A stretch of DNA of 64,000 nt from Hydrolagus colliei (Eukaryota): positions 4,588,001 through 4,652,000 of the forward strand of contig CM068748.1 in NCBI GenBank assembly GCA_035084275.1. Direction: 5' to 3'. Of the stretch, positions 7,082-62,154 are shown piece by piece. The notes under the pieces were generated by a model, which was not told where the DNA came from, ran no database searches, and worked only from the letters and a program-made list of their open reading frames with translations. Position 1 is the stretch's first letter; each line of letters begins with the position of its first letter. The position numbers and the translations under genes are program-made.

Positions 7082-10000
7082 AACAGGAGCTTATAAATCC
7101 TTTTGCTTTTGTTCCTCCAACACACACTCACTCATACACTTTATCCGTTTTTGTCATCCCACTCTGCTTCCACCAAACAATCATGATTATGAAGTACCTA
7201 GTTTATACTAAACTAAGAATTTTGAATTTGTATGTAAATTTGTATGCATTTGATGTCCAATCTCTAAACTAGCCAGAGAGTAACTGCCAAACTTTGAATT
7301 GAGCCAGACCAGCTCAGAAGCATGAGGAATGAACTAACACAGAAATTCAATATCCAAAGCCCAAGGCAAAAAAAAAATGACTCCCAATAATTCTCAGTTT
7401 ATCATGCCAGGGTTCCCGCTCTGTCATTTTTCTCTACCTACTCTGTGCTTGTATACAAGCAGTAATTTCTCTGCAATTTCTTTCACCCAAGTTCCTTTAC
7501 TAGCTCATGCATCTTGAAATATGTTGAAGGCTGTGTAAAAAAAAAAAATAGTGTTACAATGGGCAAGAGTAGAAGCCACCTTTTCTCCCCCTAACATCTC
7601 ACGAACCCACCCTTGCATATATGTGATATGGATCTGAACATCAGATTCCTCCAATGAATGCATTGGATATGGACTGCATTGCAGTTACAACCAATGTCCT
7701 CGACAAATAGATGGGGCAAATACTGCTCCATCAAGATTGCGGGGAGAAATGACCCCAGTGAAGGCATCCATATTTCAAGTCACTTGGGACAGGAATTTAA
7801 ACCACATGCCTCCTTTCGAAAGTACTGTATAACAATGAACTGCTAGGATTACTGAGCTACTATTCTACATTTAAACTTAAAAATCTAGAAATAAATGTTA
7901 CAGTTATATTGCCTCGCTGCAATTTTGCTTTAACATATTTTCCTTTCTAAGCCAGTTTACCCTGCATTATTATATTCACGGAAAACGCAAAGTGACCTGT
8001 CAGATTTTGTTGAATTTGCACCTTTTCACCTTTAAAAGATTGTCTATTCATTTTTTATAAGATGCACACATTTGCCAGAAAATTGCATCCACTTATCAAG
8101 AATGTGCACTGAAAGTTGAGATTTATTTTGCGATGTATTTTAAGATATACTACTCAGGTATATCAATACTGTCGGTTTCAATGGTATCTGTAGTGCAAAT
8201 CTTGAGCGCTACCTCAAGCACTAGTTATTCACTGACTGTGAATACATAATGTGATGCATATCTAACCCCAAATAAAAGCTGATACTATCTGAGAGATATT
8301 TCTTTTAAACTAGTATTGTACTAAGAAACGGTTTAAAAAGTCCACTTTGTTTCTTGCACGTATAATATGGTCAGAGGCTAAACTGCTTCCATTTCTAATC
8401 ATGATGTCTGAGGTTACCAAATTCCTTCGTACACTTCTACAAGTTTTCCTTTGTAGTTATCTCGCTACGTATAATTCATACAGTGACCTTCAACTTTATG
8501 AGAAGGTAGATGAGGTGTTGGCAGTAGCTGAGAGATGCAATGTCTTTGCTACAAATTATGCCAAGGACAAAGCGGAGCAACTCACCTTTGCAGCGAAGAA
8601 ACTTCAAATACTTTGCTGTATTTCAGATTGATTGTGAGGTCTGTGGTCCTCAAAGGGCAAACGTAGAGTTCAATTAACAAGCTCATTAGAACAGTACAGG
8701 AGGCCCATAAAAGAATCATAAAGGCTCTTGGGAGTAAGGGAATGGAGGACTGATTAGTTCAAGGTCATCTTAAATGAGTACCATACAACTTAAGCAAGAT
8801 GTCACTGACGACTGTAATTGTCTATAATGATGAAACTAAATAAAGAGCTTTCTTTGTGAATTCATCTTCTTATGTAACCCAGAACTTACTGTTCAAATTA
8901 AACTAAGTGGTCACTGGCCTAGGTAAGGTACATTTCAAATGTTGGCTGCCTTATTAATATTCCAAGTAATGAGGGAAGTGTGGGGGCATTTTGCAATTTG
9001 TAATTTACTTGTATGATCCTCTTGTGTAGATTTTGTGACTGCGACTTATTTTTACGTGGAGAGAGCAGAAATACGTGGGGCTTGGGAAAACAAACCTGTC
9101 ACATCTGTTTCCTTACAAGTCCAGGGTTGTTCATCACAAATCAGTTATGTATTTTTCCCCAAATGCTGTTTTTAGAATTTAAATGATAAAATCCCAAAGT
9201 GCCTAGTGTACTGTTCTGTCAATTACTAGAATATATATAGATATATAGATATACCACTTTTGGAAGCTTTACAATATCCCAGTTCAGCACCCTGCATCAT
9301 ATATTGAAACTGACACATGCAAATACTGCAGAGATATCATATAGTTGGATTAGTCAATTTTGCACTGCATTGTGATGATTTGGGAAATGAAACAATGAGA
9401 AGCCTTCTGAGAGAAATATTTCACCTACATGTAGGTTTGCCAAAGCTCAACCTAAAACTATTTGTACCTTGATAACCCACAGAATGATAAGGAAAATGTA
9501 AATTGTTTGTCAGCATTCGAGTTCACAATGTATTTGAGACCAAATTATAAAGGAAAGGGCAATTGTGATGGATGCCAGAATAGCTGGACAGATGAGGTTT
9601 GCTGAATGCAAGGTTATCATTTCCATTAATAGAAATGTTACTTATTCGGTTATTATTTGCACAAATAAATGTAGAAAACTACTGACTAACTTGCTTAATT
9701 CTAGATAAAGAGACAAAATATAACAACAACAAAATTATATTTATAGAGCACCTTTCACGTTGGGATGTTGAGCATTAGTAAAACATTTTTCAGCAACCTC
9801 AAATGGAATTAGAACGAGTAATATCAAGACAATTAAGTTTAGAACAATTCTATATTTTACTATAACCTCACAATGTACATGGGCATTTTCCACTTGTTGG
9901 CTACTAAGACCGTTAGAATCAAAAGCTGGATTTATGCTGCAGATTTCTGAATATGGGAAAGTTGCGAGAGTCTTAAAAGCCCCTTTGCTGATTTATATTT

Positions 10001-13965: not shown

Positions 13966-14035
13966 AACAACAACAACAAAATTACATTGTAGAACGCTTT
14001 TCAAGTCAGGAGGACATCCAAAGGCGCTGAACAGT
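13966..14035 (-). repeat. Solo L2 3' hairpin+tail insertion
   Basis: aacaacaacaacaaaattacattgtagaacgcttttcaagtcaggaggacatccaaaggcgctgaacagt. Similar solo tails lie at 9722-9772, 10816-10880, 17531-17591, 35444-35498, 36562-36623, 48131-48190, 53547-53612, 55740-55792 and 63974-64000. Confidence 0.75.
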
Positions 14036-14423
14036 TAAAATCGAATATTGCTCTTACCTAGTAGAGCACTTTCACAATGAATGAACCCATTACTCCAAGT
14101 GATACCTTTTTTTGGCTAACAATGATTGTGACAGGTGTTAGAGGGGCAATTCAATCAAAATTTGCATATGCTATGTTAGGTTGCAGAACAAATTACAGCA
14201 TGAAGAATAAAAGAATTATGTATAAGTATTAAGAAAATCTTGCTGAAGATTACAGACAAATCTAGGTAAATGGAAAATATGGGCAGATGTCTGGCAAATT
14301 AAAGTACATTTAGGGGGATTAAGAATCATATAAGTCATAAAAAACAACTTTGCTACAGGAAAACTGGAAAAAATAATTTTAAAATTTGAGCAAATGGCCA
14401 GCACATTTGAGTTTGAAAATTGC

Positions 14424-31027: not shown

Positions 31028-31445
31028 ATCAATCAATCAAAACTTACATTTATATAGCGCCTTTCACGCCAAGAAGATGTCCCAAGGCGCTGTACAGTTA
31101 GGTAGGGACAAGAGCAGGTGGGGAGGGGTCGAGGCAGGATGAAGAAGAGTAGGAAAATTGACTGTATATTTGTGGGCGAAACGCGGCAGCCAAATTGCGC
31201 ACAACAGTGTCCCACAAACAGTCATAGAAGTGGGATTAAGGGAAAAGGTGGGGGGAAAGATGGCAAGGGGAGGGGTTGGGGTAGGGGGGTGGGAAGAAGG
31301 AGAGCAGGAAAGCCAGTTGGCGAACCGCAGCAGCCAGATTGCACACAGCAGTGTCCCACAAACAGTCTTGGAAGTGGGACTAGGGGAAAAAGGCGGGAAA
31401 GAGGGCAAAGGGAGGGGTTGGGTAGAGCACGTTGGGTACAGGAAG
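31028..31445 (-). mobile_element. Composite retroelement, 5'-truncated copy (duplicated Deu core + pyrimidine linkers + L2 hairpin tail with (TTGA)n)
   Basis: The reverse complement is colinear with about 61780-62140: two Deu cores, linker ttttcctactcttc...cctgcc.cgacccctcccc..ctgctcttgtccctacctaactgtacagcgccttgggac, and tail atataaatgtaagttttgattgattgat. Confidence 0.9.
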
Positions 31446-33215: not shown

Positions 33216-35667
33216 CTTTGCAACTATGTGTTCGCAATTTCATTAAATAATTAAAACCATCTTAACAGGATTAAAAAAAATTTAAAGCCTATTTTGTTAA
33301 ATTGCTTGTTTTGGGGGAAATAATATTTTGAGGAGTATATTCTGCTGTTTCCTAGGGTGATCATAGTTTGTATTAATCTATGTAAAAGTAGAGATTATCA
33401 TGGTATTTTACAGAATATACGAAACATTTAACAAGCACATTCCTGCAGGGCAAAGGTGTGGAGGAAAGTAAACAGCAAAATCCACTTTGTGGGTTAATAT
33501 TAGATCAGAAACACGTGCAATTGTAGCAATGTTCAAACTTCTGTAAAACATTACTTTGAATTTACCACTTTTCCAGTACCTGTTTATTTGGCAGGTTAGC
33601 TGCTGTTCTCAGAGCAGAGGGTGAAAGTCATGTCCCTGGTGTGTGTCAATGTATTGTGTACATGGGGCTTCCTATCTCCTGAGGATGCAATAGCACTTTG
33701 AGGGTGGAGATTCCCCATGTGCAGAGGAGACCTGAAGAAATGAAAAAAAAGGACAGGTTACATACTAAATCTGTAGTAATCCTTGTCCTCTGAATGCTGG
33801 TTTCTTCCGCATATTTCATAGGCTTTAAAGTTCAGTGGAGCTAAGATGGACAAGGGAAGGTGAGGTTAAATAAACTATAAGTCAAGGAGATCATGCACAT
33901 TTTCAGAGAGTGTGATTTTATACTCTAAAAATAAATTTTAAAGGAAGAAGCAAGATCAAACATGCTATATGGAATAGATCACTGTCAGGAGCTCAATGAT
34001 TACAGGACCTTAAATAAATTACCTTCTTATTTGTGAAATTATAAAATAGGTTTATTCACAGAATACTGGACATAATTGTTTGTGATATGTTGCTGTTTGC
34101 AGGATTCCACTATAATCCTAGTTCAATTGAAGACTTAACTATTGCAAATTCATTATGTGCAAGGTGCATTTTGTGCAAGAGGAACTGATATAATAAAATT
34201 AGGCCTTTGACCAAAACAACAGGGAACAAGGCCAATCTTTTCCTCAAATTGCTGTCATTGTAGTGACTCACTTGAACTTATTTCAGTGTGTAACTGCAGC
34301 CTAGTTGTTAGTATTGACTAAGATTTGGCAGAACGACAGCACTCACTATATATGTGTGATGGGGGTACTTAAGGAAAAAGAGCTACTGGTTTGGAATTCT
34401 AATGCTTTGTTTTTAAGATGTTTGTAGCGGTAAAAGCATGAGTCATATGAAGAATAATTGCCTACAAAACAATGCTATTTGGACATTAGCTGTAACAATT
34501 GCCTGCCACTTTCTATCAGTGGTATCATTCAATCCCCTCTTTGTGCTTTTTGGACATTGTGCACCGTACCAGAGTCATATAAAGCAGATTGCAGTAACAG
34601 GCTGACAGTTAGGAGCTAGCTCAGCAGTGCTGGGTGCAAACTGCCACCTTCCTGTGGATTTACAGCTGCCACTTATGCTACTTCAATTAGTTCTATAGCA
34701 CACAGATGTTGCTTAAATGTTTCTGCTAATGATACTGCAATAAGCGTAAGATTCATGCCATATTTTGAGGCATGTAAATTTCTCAAGTGGCACAATTAAA
34801 GCGAAAATATTGGGTAGGGAGAATGTAGCAAACTCTAGAAGTTGGAAAGCATAAATGCTGTTTAATAATGAGTCCGGAATCCCGGATTCATTCAACTTGG
34901 TCCATGGTCAAACTTTCCTCTAAAGTATTTTCACAGTTGAATGCAAAGTAGCCAAATCTGTGCACGTAGAGATGAAACTCCTGCTCTATAATTCAGATAT
35001 TTTCATTTAAAATTGTAATGACATGCTTCCCTTTACTGCTGATGAGCACTGAATTTTAAATGTTAGTTCTTAAAAGCATTTTAATCTTTGAAAATTTTGA
35101 AACTCACTGAGAAGGACTAAGTGGTGGAAAAAAATATGAGTTCAGCCAGAATTTTAACAGGCTATACTTTGAATGCACAATCAGTGATATCAATGGTAAC
35201 ATTTCAAATGGATTAGAAGACCTTATATCTGGCAATGTTTGACAGATTGCTACACTGGAGTTTTGACAGAAATTGTGCATGATAATGGTTAAATATGTAT
35301 GAGAAGAGTAAGTACATTTTTGTTTTAGAAGACAGATATCCAACTAGGAAGAATTTATTCTTCAAAATGTGTACTGTATGATCCTGAAGCATCTTCCTTA
35401 GAGAAATGATTGTGTATGTGAACTGAGTGATCAATTTGGGATATTGGGATGTCCTCCTGACGTGAAAGGTGCTAGACAAGTGTAATTTTGTTGTTGTGGT
35501 ATTGCAATATCCTTTCACTTGGACACTCAAAATCTGTGTTAAAATTGATATTCTGGATATACAATGGTAAAAGGTGAACAACTCAGTTTATTTCATGAGT
35601 CAGAAATCTGAACAGCCATAAATAATGAAAACAATAGTGAATCCAAGCCATCTTTATGGGTTGAATA

Positions 35668-36497: not shown

Positions 36498-38578
36498 AGT
36501 CCATAGTTCTGGTTGCGATATTATCAAATTACACAATAAAGTGTATACTCATGTAATAATGACGCTTTATCATTCTCTTGACGTGAAAAGTGCTATACAA
36601 GTGTAATTTTGTTGTTGTAGTTGTTTACACCATGTTAACTATCAGAACATGGGTAAAATAAATGTTCTACATTCCTGTGCTTTATTCAGATTTACATATT
36701 TCTGATTTGATACACACTGGGTAAGAATGAAGTGGACTATTGTTTGGTTTCCCTTGGTACATGGTACAGTTATGCCTTATCTGACTGATATCTCGCATCT
36801 CTGTGGTTGGGCAAGGAGACCATTTGCAAAAGCCTGGGAGCAAAACACCTGCTCAGCATCTGCGATCACAGGCCAGGCTGATCTAAGATTAAAAGGTGAG
36901 TACATAAATTCTTTTTTTAAAAATAAATACATTATTTTAATTTAATGATATTAGATGCCAGTCTAAATCTAAATTGGTCTGCAGATATAATGATCAATAA
37001 TGTTTCCTTGAATTCACAAAAATTGAGATGATTGAAAAGTGTATATTGTACTCTTTTTGCTGGGAACAAAACACCATGTCATAAATGTACCTCTTTTGTC
37101 TGATATATGGTGTTCGCTTCAAATATAAGGTTTTGCAAGTGTCATGTTTACTTTCTGCAAGGCAGCAAAGAATAAAGTTAAGCTGTCCTCAAACCAAAGA
37201 AACATGTGATAATATATGTTTTTTATTGGCAGTGAAAGTGTACTTGCTATGGAAAGAAAAATGTCACTGCATCCTTTTTTGTTGACACTGCACTTTATGA
37301 GCAGAGTGTTTGTGCTGAAGTGATGCAAAACAGCCTGGCAAACAGAAATGAGGGTAAGTGTGGACATGCTCAGTGCAGGTCAGCTGGCCAAGCACAACCA
37401 AATTGTGTTGTCTTTGTTGAGCCAATACTAGTCCAAACATTGAGATCAAATGCCAAATTGTGAGCCATTGAACAAAATTATGTTGGGAAGGGCAGTCAAT
37501 GTAGTCAAATCTAACAATATGAAAATGTAATATCAATGATCAGTTGTGAATTAGAAACATTAGTTATCTATATTTTTGAAAGGTCATACTTGAGGCTGAG
37601 TCTACTGCTAACAGTAAATTCTAGGCTTTTTTTTGCAGAACCTGAGAGGACCCTTTGATAAATCCTTTATTCTTTGCAGTACTAAATCATTTGTTTCAAA
37701 CCCCACTAAGATTTTTAGGATATGTGAATATTGCATTCAATAGCACTCTTGGGGTTGGATATTTGATATTAAATTCATTGTCAGAAAACTAAACAATACC
37801 AAGACTGAAGGGATATCATACTCATATTGTTCATAGTTAGAATGCAATTTTCTAATAGCCCTGTTACAAAATGCATTGTAATTAATGAAAACAAAATTTT
37901 ATAAACATAAACTGAGCAAAATGTGAAAAATCTGCTGGGCACTTACGAAGAATAGTAGAAAGTTATGCAAAGAAGGTGACTGAACTATTCAAGGTGAATC
38001 ATCTGGAGGAATTAACCTGTGAAGACGTTTATTAAACAAGCTTTAATTTGGTTGACTTGAAACCTGGTTTGAATCAATACTTCCTTTTTAGGCTTGAAAT
38101 TGAACCAACTTCTGTGGCTGGTGATTATTTTATTTTAAAAACTGTTAACTTACTAAAGATGAGAAGGCGTAGAATTTTGAAATTAGATGTGCATTATATT
38201 TAATCCATAAATTTATCATGTTCTGTTGTAGATGGTGGAAGGGGAGAAGGGTACAAGGTTTCTTGGAATTATTGCCAACTGTCCATTAACACCTCGTCAA
38301 ACATGTGCTTGTGTGTATCAGATCAGACACGAAGGTTGTTACATTTGTGATGTGGATATCTAATGTAATAATGGGGGTGATTATTACAGAATGTTGCAAA
38401 AATATCAGTCAAGCACATTGGGGGAAGGAGGAACAGCGGATCCAATTAAATTGGGCCACATTGAGGTTTCCAATCACTTAAATGGGCTTGCAGTAGCTGC
38501 ACATATGTCTCTCAGAAATTCAGCTCAGACCTGGTGCTAACAGAACAAACTCATCGTCAAACACAGCAAGAGAGGAGC

Positions 38579-42740: not shown

Positions 42741-42804
42741 CAGCGCCTTGGGATGTCCTTCTGACGTGAAAGGCGGTATGTAAATGTAATTTTGTTGTTG
42801 TTGT
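42741..42804 (+). repeat. Solo L2 3' hairpin+tail insertion
   Basis: cagcgccttgggatgtccttctgacgtgaaaggcggtatgtaaatgtaattttgttgttgttgt, flanked by unrelated sequence. Confidence 0.8.
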
Positions 42805-55735: not shown

Positions 55736-55889
55736 CATTACAACAAAATTACATAATGCCTTTCACATTGGGAGGACATCCCAAGGCACTGTTTAAGATC
55801 ATATATGAAAAATGTTCACATGAGTGAAGTATCAAAGAAGGTCATATGAAAACTTTTTTGTGTCTTGAGACATGAGGGGAGTAAAAAAA

Positions 55890-61189: not shown

Positions 61190-62123
61190 GTGAACTCGCT
61201 CGACGGCGACGTCTTCGGGCGGTCCCCCTGCGAGGCCTTTCACCTGGTCCGGTGCCGTAAGCGGTGGATCATCTCGTCGCGGGAGACCATCTTGTCTCGG
61301 GAGATCCGGACGGCGATCGGGCTGCTGCTGCTGTGCGCACTGGCCTGACACGCCGTGTTCGGGTACACCGGCTGAGGAGACCGGTCGGTTTTCGGGCCTG
61401 TTGCCACACTGGGCCCTGTTTCGAAGATGGTCCAGGCAGGCGGCGGGGAAAAGGAGCAGTTGCTGGACTATTGTTAGTTGTTGATTGTTATTGTTTTTAT
61501 TGTTAATATTGTTGATTTGTGTTGTTTATTGTTGTTGTTTGATTCCCCCCCCCCTGTCCCCTGGCCTTTTCCCACCCCCCCCTTCTTCCCTCACTCCCTT
61601 TCCCCACTTTCTCTTCCCCCTTTTCCCCTTCTCTACCTCTTCCCTCTTGCCTCCCTTTCTCCCTGATTTTGCCCCCCATCCACCTTTCCCTCCCTCTCCC
61701 CTTTGCCCCCCTTTCTCCCCCCTCTTCCTCCCTGACCTTACCCCACACCACTTTCCCTCCCTCTCCCCCCTTGCCCTCTTTTTCCCCTTTCTCCCCTGGC
61801 CCCATTTCTACGACTGCTGTGAGCAATTTGGCTGCCGCGTTTCACCCACAAGTATACAGTCGGCTTTCCTGCTCTCCTTCCCCCTGCCCCGACCGCTCCC
61901 CTTACCATCTTTTTCCCCACATTTCCCTTATCCCACTTCCATGACTGTTTGTGTGACACTGCTCTGTGCAATTTGGCTGCCGCGCTTCGCCCACAAATAT
62001 ACAGTCAATTTTCCTACTCTTCTTTGTCCTGCCCCGACCCCTCCCACACTGCTCTTGTCCCTACCTAACTGTACAGCGCCTTGGGACGTCCTCTCGACGT
62101 GAAAGGCGCTATATAAATGTAAG

Positions 62124-62154
<31 letters not shown>
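61190..62154 (+). mobile_element. Composite non-autonomous retroelement, longest copy (about 965 bp)
   Basis: CpG-rich head 61190-61470, T/G-rich linker 61470-61542, polypyrimidine tract 61544-61808, Deu core 1 (61811-61861), linker, Deu core 2 (61941-62006), L2 hairpin 62075-62110 and (TTGA)n tail 62126-62154. A second copy lies at 31028-31445. Confidence 0.88.

Follow-up and report, generated by a model that had tools for sequence, protein, structure and literature searches.

A dispersed L2-tailed retroposon family with host-gene heads in the chimaera Hydrolagus colliei

We find that the composite element at positions 61190–62154 (plus strand) of the DNA analyzed here, a 64,000-nucleotide stretch of the Hydrolagus colliei genome (the window), is a 5′-truncated copy of a dispersed repeat family. 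The identity of its parts and the existence of the family are close to certain. As a full explanation, we consider it likely that the stretch is a copy of a non-autonomous retroposon with a head taken from host genes (an H2B variant and RUNDC1) and an L2-type hairpin tail, probably copied by the resident L2 reverse transcriptase. A first-pass annotation, made from the letters alone, had proposed a mobile, composite, non-autonomous family, and genome-wide searches (1.0 Gb) bore this out, with 781 exact matches to a 32-base tail pattern, 305 to an 18-base head-junction pattern, and none for the controls; these counts are lower bounds on copy number.

Anatomy and dispersal of the element

The head of the window copy had been described as holding about 30 CpGs in a CpG-poor window. 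We counted 30 at 61190–61450 (observed/expected 1.06, compared with 0.29 for the window), the highest CpG density of any 260-bp stretch in the window. The source of this richness is decayed coding sequence for a histone H2B variant at 61190–61373, 5′-truncated and covering the C-terminal half of the fold, of which 61191–61368 aligns to an intact gene (L091:1476–1916, on G000:C194). A RUNDC1 exon 1 coding remnant follows at 61374–61466, in two pieces (about 61374–61416 and 61425–61466) around an internal deletion; older copies keep the whole piece. Downstream lie a T/G-rich, (TTG)n-like spacer at 61467–61545 (22% GC, no CpG), which is found directly 3′ of the RUNDC1 piece in the oldest lineage too, and a CpG-free polypyrimidine tract at 61546–61810. 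Two units, with approximate boundaries at 61811–61940 and 61941–62069, each combine a 3′ block shared with SINEs and a pyrimidine linker; the block of unit 1 is partly deleted here. The units are spaced 145 bp apart, with 84% identity between 61813–61900 and 61958–62045. An L2-type 3′ stem-loop with a tail stem at 62070–62125 (stem 62075–62110), assigned by its fold and its likeness to young L2, and a (TTGA)7.2 tail at 62126–62154, the mark of the window's lineage (lineage C below), end the copy. All of these modules are on the plus strand, and the spacer, tract, two tandem units of about 145 bp, hairpin, and TTGA tail fall where they had first been placed. The sub-repeats of roughly 60 bp seen in the tract are real, but they amount to exactly two copies of 67 bp (2.0 units at 61655–61787), that is, to one duplication.

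A second copy in the window, on the minus strand at 31028–31445, is more deeply truncated at its 5′ end and retains the end of the tract, two units, the hairpin, and the TTGA tail. It had been read as a 5′-truncated relative, and indeed 31028–31412 aligns to the window copy at 81% identity over 396 bp; its hairpin folds no better than shuffled sequence (z = −0.04). ARAGORN found no tRNA in the element, and the heads of full-length copies are gene-derived, in line with the reported lack of a tRNA head. The true 5′ end of the element lies about 185 bp upstream of the first base of the window copy.

Beyond the exact patterns, a first look gave 745 candidates for the head and 5,875 for the 3′ part, the latter including ordinary SINEs with the same core; 40 of each were scored. 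The core unit was reached in 26 of the 29 other loci from the head search, so that head and core module co-occur. The 5′ ends also coincide: among about 50 distinct head-bearing loci, a sample that favors long copies, 15 separate insertions with unrelated flanks begin at the same AAGATGG-type position. Thirty tail-anchored loci contain 55–846 bp of element each, and head sequence was present in one only. Frequent 5′ truncation and the absence of reverse transcriptase coding in the dispersed copies match an L2-dependent non-autonomous retroposon, and no convincing target-site duplication was found in 12 full-length copies. Whether unit number varies had been raised as a question, and it does so for the cores (one in 11 of 36 copies, two in 25, and three in L129) but less for the tract, whose length ranges from 166 to 395 bp (median 274; 36 copies) and is mostly steady, at 259–297 bp in 25 of the 36. 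Some copies (L004, L006, L010, L160, L174) carry a SINE-type (ATT)n tail in place of their own, a sign that tails may be exchanged or that copies inserted into the tails of SINEs.

The L2-type tail named in the first-pass annotation is well founded. None of 200 shuffles is as stable as the 3′ hairpin of the window copy (z = −3.9), and 3 of about 55 positions separate this hairpin from the one that closes young L2 copies. There it is followed by (TTG)n, which the oldest element lineages carry as well. Members of this L2 family carry endonuclease and reverse transcriptase domains; no complete intact L2 could be assembled from any single locus. Because the ORF2 protein of L2-clade elements recognizes the stem-loop in the tail of its own element (PMC4176376), we infer that the resident L2 reverse transcriptase very probably copies the element in trans. 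The window also holds hairpin-only L2 stubs of 30–60 bp with (TTG)n tails (42741–42793, 13978–14037, 35444–35489, 55749–55792, 36575–36610, and 9731–9760).

In local tRNA SINEs, the counterpart of the core block lies in the 3′ part, 75–150 bp from the SINE 3′ end; unit 2 is 74%–88% identical to seven SINE copies in the window over 61–74 bp. The block falls inside a 3′ region of about 160 bp that is common to CORE-type and Deu-type SINE families (PMC5499810), so that its earlier description as a SINE-shared block stands, while the name "Deu core" is unproven.

Source genes and lineages of the head

Rather than being an unknown promoter, the CpG-rich head derives from protein-coding DNA that has since decayed, namely from a single H2B variant gene, after which comes what is left of RUNDC1 exon 1. 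A sister copy matched H2B in the PDB with an E value of 5e-16. Matches of the window copy alone were weak (single-domain E 0.012–0.036), and H2B chains made up all 60 matches listed. The Pfam Histone cut-off was passed by one of ten tested frames, with two more matching weakly. The source is a single intact H2B variant gene, that on contig C194, which has diagnostic residues in common with the element and is 97%–98% identical to two Callorhinchus milii proteins over residues 40–147; no second copy of the variant was found on that contig. The variant has a Ser-run and an Arg-rich N-tail and sits in a small cluster of divergent histones that includes an unusual H1 (G000:C194). Other candidate sources were rejected: the canonical H2B clusters by diagnostic residues and the tree, and an L2 ORF end or L2 5′ UTR by the translations, which match H2B. 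An Arg-rich stretch considered as a UQCC2 remnant was likewise discarded, as lineage D, described below, joins far further downstream.

A tree of 76 rows, comprising 71 element copies (mostly 150 bp or longer) and five H2B genes, with the rows of lineage D left out as too short, places the variant gene nearest the elements and all 71 element rows on its side of the other H2B genes. Lineage C forms one clade (100/100), with the window copy in its most derived subclade, and lineage B does not resolve as a clade (46/0). An 18-bp tandem duplication within the H2B part (61270–61304, plus strand, in the window) occurs in identical form in L002, L007, L008, L015, L016, L018, and L019, on different branches of the tree. 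Among 81 aligned copies, the window copy keeps the highest share of consensus CpGs (24 of 27), with an ordinary non-CpG divergence of 6%. Its head may be unmethylated in the germline, although this CpG-retention figure is biased, the consensus having been built from copies found with this same head.

For the RUNDC1 part, an older copy matched residues 1–110 of C. milii RUNDC1 at 63% identity (E 3e-21), and all 33 genomic RUNDC1 matches fall within residues 1–115. A protein search of the whole genome gave no match beyond residue 115 among 56 scored candidates, and no RUNDC1 host gene was found near the lineage A first exon on contig C6. The absence of the remainder of RUNDC1 reflects either an assembly gap or gene loss.

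The copies fall into four lineages. Lineage A, which has no H2B, opens with 62 bp that are 89% identical to a host CpG-island first exon and stop at a donor-like site. A further piece, the RUNDC1 leader with codons 1–110, the spacer, a longer tract, a single core, and (TTG)n come next. In lineage B, the H2B variant replaces most of the front of A and is joined at the EEP codons of RUNDC1; there is one core and mostly (TTG)n. In lineage C, that of the window copy, the middle of the RUNDC1 piece is lost, the core is often doubled, and the tail is (TTGA)n. In lineage D, exon 1 of UQCC2 is joined into the H2B part of C, and the tail is (TTTG)n. All 150 scored matches of a UQCC2 search pass the Pfam cut-off; one of these is the gene itself, and the 14 other loci that were fetched all run on into family sequence. 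Two short frames, from one copy, of a PEBP4-like piece upstream of UQCC2 hit no Pfam family and gave one weak, unrelated PDB match. The CpG-island first exon of lineage A is present twice in the genome, in inverted orientation 30 kb apart (L240 and L241; G000:C6, 67.57 and 67.60 Mb). One copy points toward an MBT-repeat exon of the SCML2/SCMH1/L3MBTL group, and the other toward an ORF that may resemble CDKL5; an atlas search with the ORF downstream of L240 returned no match at 0.9. An 82-bp piece of the lineage A leader matches a single locus at 95% (L236, G000:C30), right after a pyrimidine tract and an AG.

The lineages probably arose in the order A, B, C, D; the relative order of UQCC2, RUNDC1, and H2B rests on nested structure and divergence rather than on a rooted four-lineage tree. 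Over the 3′ 210 bp, the median distance to the group consensus is 14.5% in a mixed A/B set (11 copies), 7%–10% in lineage C (two sets of 21), and 2.7% in lineage D (12 copies), with the window copy at 7.1%. At a rough rate of about 1e-3 per site per million years (PMC5499810), a divergence of 7% would correspond to some 65–70 million years. The element had been taken to be young, and this part of the first-pass annotation does not hold for the window copy, which lacks about 185 bp of its 5′ end and is about 7% diverged, compared with the 2.7% of lineage D and the 0.3% separating the best-matching 20 L2 copies, a best-hit sample, from their own consensus.

Origin of the family and of its changes

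Two rival accounts are disfavored. The element might be the 3′ UTR of a catalogued L2, as its near-identical hairpin could suggest, or an existing Repbase or Dfam entry, an outcome that had been named at the outset as one that would overturn the annotation and that we now regard as improbable. At 20 of 20 L2 loci, the ORF runs directly into the hairpin with neither tract nor cores, and the element is therefore not an L2 3′ UTR; family sequence precedes the hairpin at 27 of 30 TTGA-tail loci (the other three being too short to tell), and the 5′ end of full-length copies is constant and foreign to L2. We found no description of the family in the literature, where coverage was mostly of titles and the starts of abstracts, with Repbase and Dfam outside the comparison; a recent chimaera genome paper, in the parts covered, mentions repeat-class totals only (PMC12952989). 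Alternatively, a single chimeric host transcript could have given rise to the copies as ordinary processed pseudogenes, passively copied without a self-propagating lineage. Such an account would fit a head of host coding sequence that opens, at its 5′ end, with a genuine first exon. It is nonetheless largely refuted, and very improbable, given nested subfamilies with shared changes and stepwise structural change, donors on separate contigs (C194, C29, and C6), and an H2B gene whose own 3′ end carries a histone stem-loop and no element sequence.

For the self-propagating retroposon that we prefer, the heads would have been gained serially, and splicing is somewhat the better supported candidate for the main route: host read-through transcripts would have been spliced into a downstream element copy, creating new heads. 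Host DNA could be read against the captured piece in three cases, and each time a GT lies at the end of that piece or no more than 1 nt from it. The break falls at a donor-like site for UQCC2 exon 1 and for the C6 host first exon (L240/L241); for H2B it falls at a cryptic GT immediately ahead of the stop, and the sequence resumes directly after an AG in the RUNDC1 part. The H2B acceptor is purine-rich and without a pyrimidine tract, a clean splice would leave one base fewer at the UQCC2 junction, and the 67-kb contig of the H2B gene (C194) contains no RUNDC1-headed (lineage A) copy. Moreover, the 5′ end of the H2B gene is missing from the H2B head, which starts as lineage A does though H2B lies between, so splicing alone does not explain this head. 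The heads could instead have been acquired by template switching of the reverse transcriptase between element RNA and abundant germline mRNAs, with H2B replacing an internal segment through two switches. Double template switches have been described (PMC2104539), 17 of 18 bases agree between the H2B gene and the host first exon exactly where the H2B piece starts, lineages A and C begin at the same motif, and the 3′ H2B junction shows 1–3 nt of microhomology. Short GGC-rich matches arise easily, however, and the 5′ ends of lineage C align to the host exon and to H2B with similarly low scores, which do not separate these sources. As a GT lies at or beside all three readable 3′ junctions, of which two are exon ends that look like donors, we hold template switching to be possible but distinctly less likely than splicing.

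The head has also changed in a directional manner. Compared with the H2B gene, fixed A-to-G changes number 5 of 66 in lineage B (T-to-C 2 of 45; six copies; p = 0.70), 15 of 65 in basal lineage C (T-to-C 4 of 45; nine copies; p = 0.07, not significant), and 25 of 61 in the window subclade (T-to-C 5 of 44; 14 copies; Fisher p = 0.001). In single copies, A-to-G affects 6%–10% of sites in lineage B and 15%–44% in lineage C, with 14 of 34 in the window copy. These sense-strand changes are fairly likely to be ADAR edits, in which case ADAR would edit the RNAs of master copies and reverse transcription would fix the A-to-G changes. A non-ADAR mutational or selective bias, such as an error-prone reverse transcriptase or transcription-coupled asymmetry, is in our view unlikely. 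It could draw on the lack of a significant ADAR neighbor preference: A-to-G occurred at 5 of 18 sites after G and at 20 of 43 after other bases (p = 0.25), a bias that runs in the ADAR direction. Against it, the odds of A-to-G over T-to-C are fivefold on one strand, and the excess rises along the master line and is absent in lineage B. GC-biased conversion is symmetric between strands and would give no such one-stranded excess.

Combining these elements, we give an even chance to a long-lived, L2-driven lineage without a Pol III head that serially captured host 5′ pieces (the CpG-island first exon, RUNDC1, the H2B variant, and UQCC2) as promoters, left a record of each stage, and fixed ADAR edits in its master copies over generations until about 40% of head adenines had become guanines. 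In the explanation we prefer, too, Pol II would transcribe the element from the captured CpG-rich 5′ end, as had been suggested at the outset. If the full reading is true, a stringent LINE would have supported SVA-style evolution of independent origin, and RNA editing passed on by inheritance would be a main driver of element sequence change. The preserved stages make both questions testable, splicing versus template switching for the heads and the fixation of ADAR edits through retrotransposition.

Comparison with known retroposons

Among amplified retroposons, heads of protein-coding origin have been described chiefly in primate SVA subfamilies, which rely on the relaxed L1. If a stringent L2 drives a comparable lineage, the design would be a general one: a transcript of any kind could turn into a master by acquiring the right hairpin. 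SVA elements comprise a 5′ CCCTCT hexamer array, an Alu-like domain, a GC-rich VNTR of many units, a SINE-R, and a poly(A) tail, are flanked by target-site duplications, and depend on L1. The element had been called an SVA-like composite; it is not an SVA. It has no hexamer array, its 5′ parts being H2B, RUNDC1, and a host first exon; it has a degenerate C/T tract without CpG and with one 67-bp duplication instead of a VNTR array; and it ends in a stem-loop and (TTGA)n, with no convincing target-site duplication in the 12 copies inspected.

The comparison is apt in how the element works, which resembles SVA_F1. In SVA_F1 (MAST2 exon 1) and the chimpanzee pt_SVA_D6 (STK40 exon 1), host exons serve as retroposon heads (PMC6139936). 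Like the element, these are non-autonomous and form an amplified subfamily whose 5′ part was replaced by a GC-rich host piece ending at an exon end. In the element, such host pieces end at a donor in UQCC2 and the C6 exon and at a cryptic GT in H2B. The element differs from SVA_F1 in its tail, a stringent L2 stem-loop with a microsatellite rather than poly(A) for L1, in having no hexamer, Alu-like, or SINE-R parts, in its cartilaginous fish host, and in its several serial captures, one of them from an intronless histone gene.

Among the CmiSINEs (SINE2-1_CM and SINE2-1B_CM) and SacSINE1-CM, with their partner L2-2_CM, both SINE families have the 3′ region of about 160 bp and the L2 tail (PMC5499810). 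The core block of the element resembles theirs in matching the 3′ part of local tRNA SINEs, but the element has no tRNA head with A and B boxes, the hallmark of SINE2, its block is often doubled, and its hairpin is nearer to young L2 than to the local SINE. The sections of PMC5499810 covered here describe no such element family. The snoRTE and PlatSINE1 elements share with it the fusion of a cellular RNA to a LINE tail, amplification, and a uniform chimeric structure, although the heads there and in similar elements are non-coding RNA or of unknown origin, whereas those of the element are pieces of several protein-coding genes (PMC7245038). Bipartite and tripartite chimeric retrogenes made by template switching similarly fuse pieces of different transcripts directly and in one orientation; those described are mostly single events, whereas each chimera of the element founded an amplifying lineage (PMC2104539).

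Hundreds of H2B-like, RUNDC1-like, and UQCC2-like fragments of this origin can inflate gene counts in chimaera annotation. Segmental duplication has additionally multiplied one old lineage B insertion, of which at least 14 copies with shared flanks are present on one contig (G000:C28, 8.41–8.70 Mb; L108–L120).
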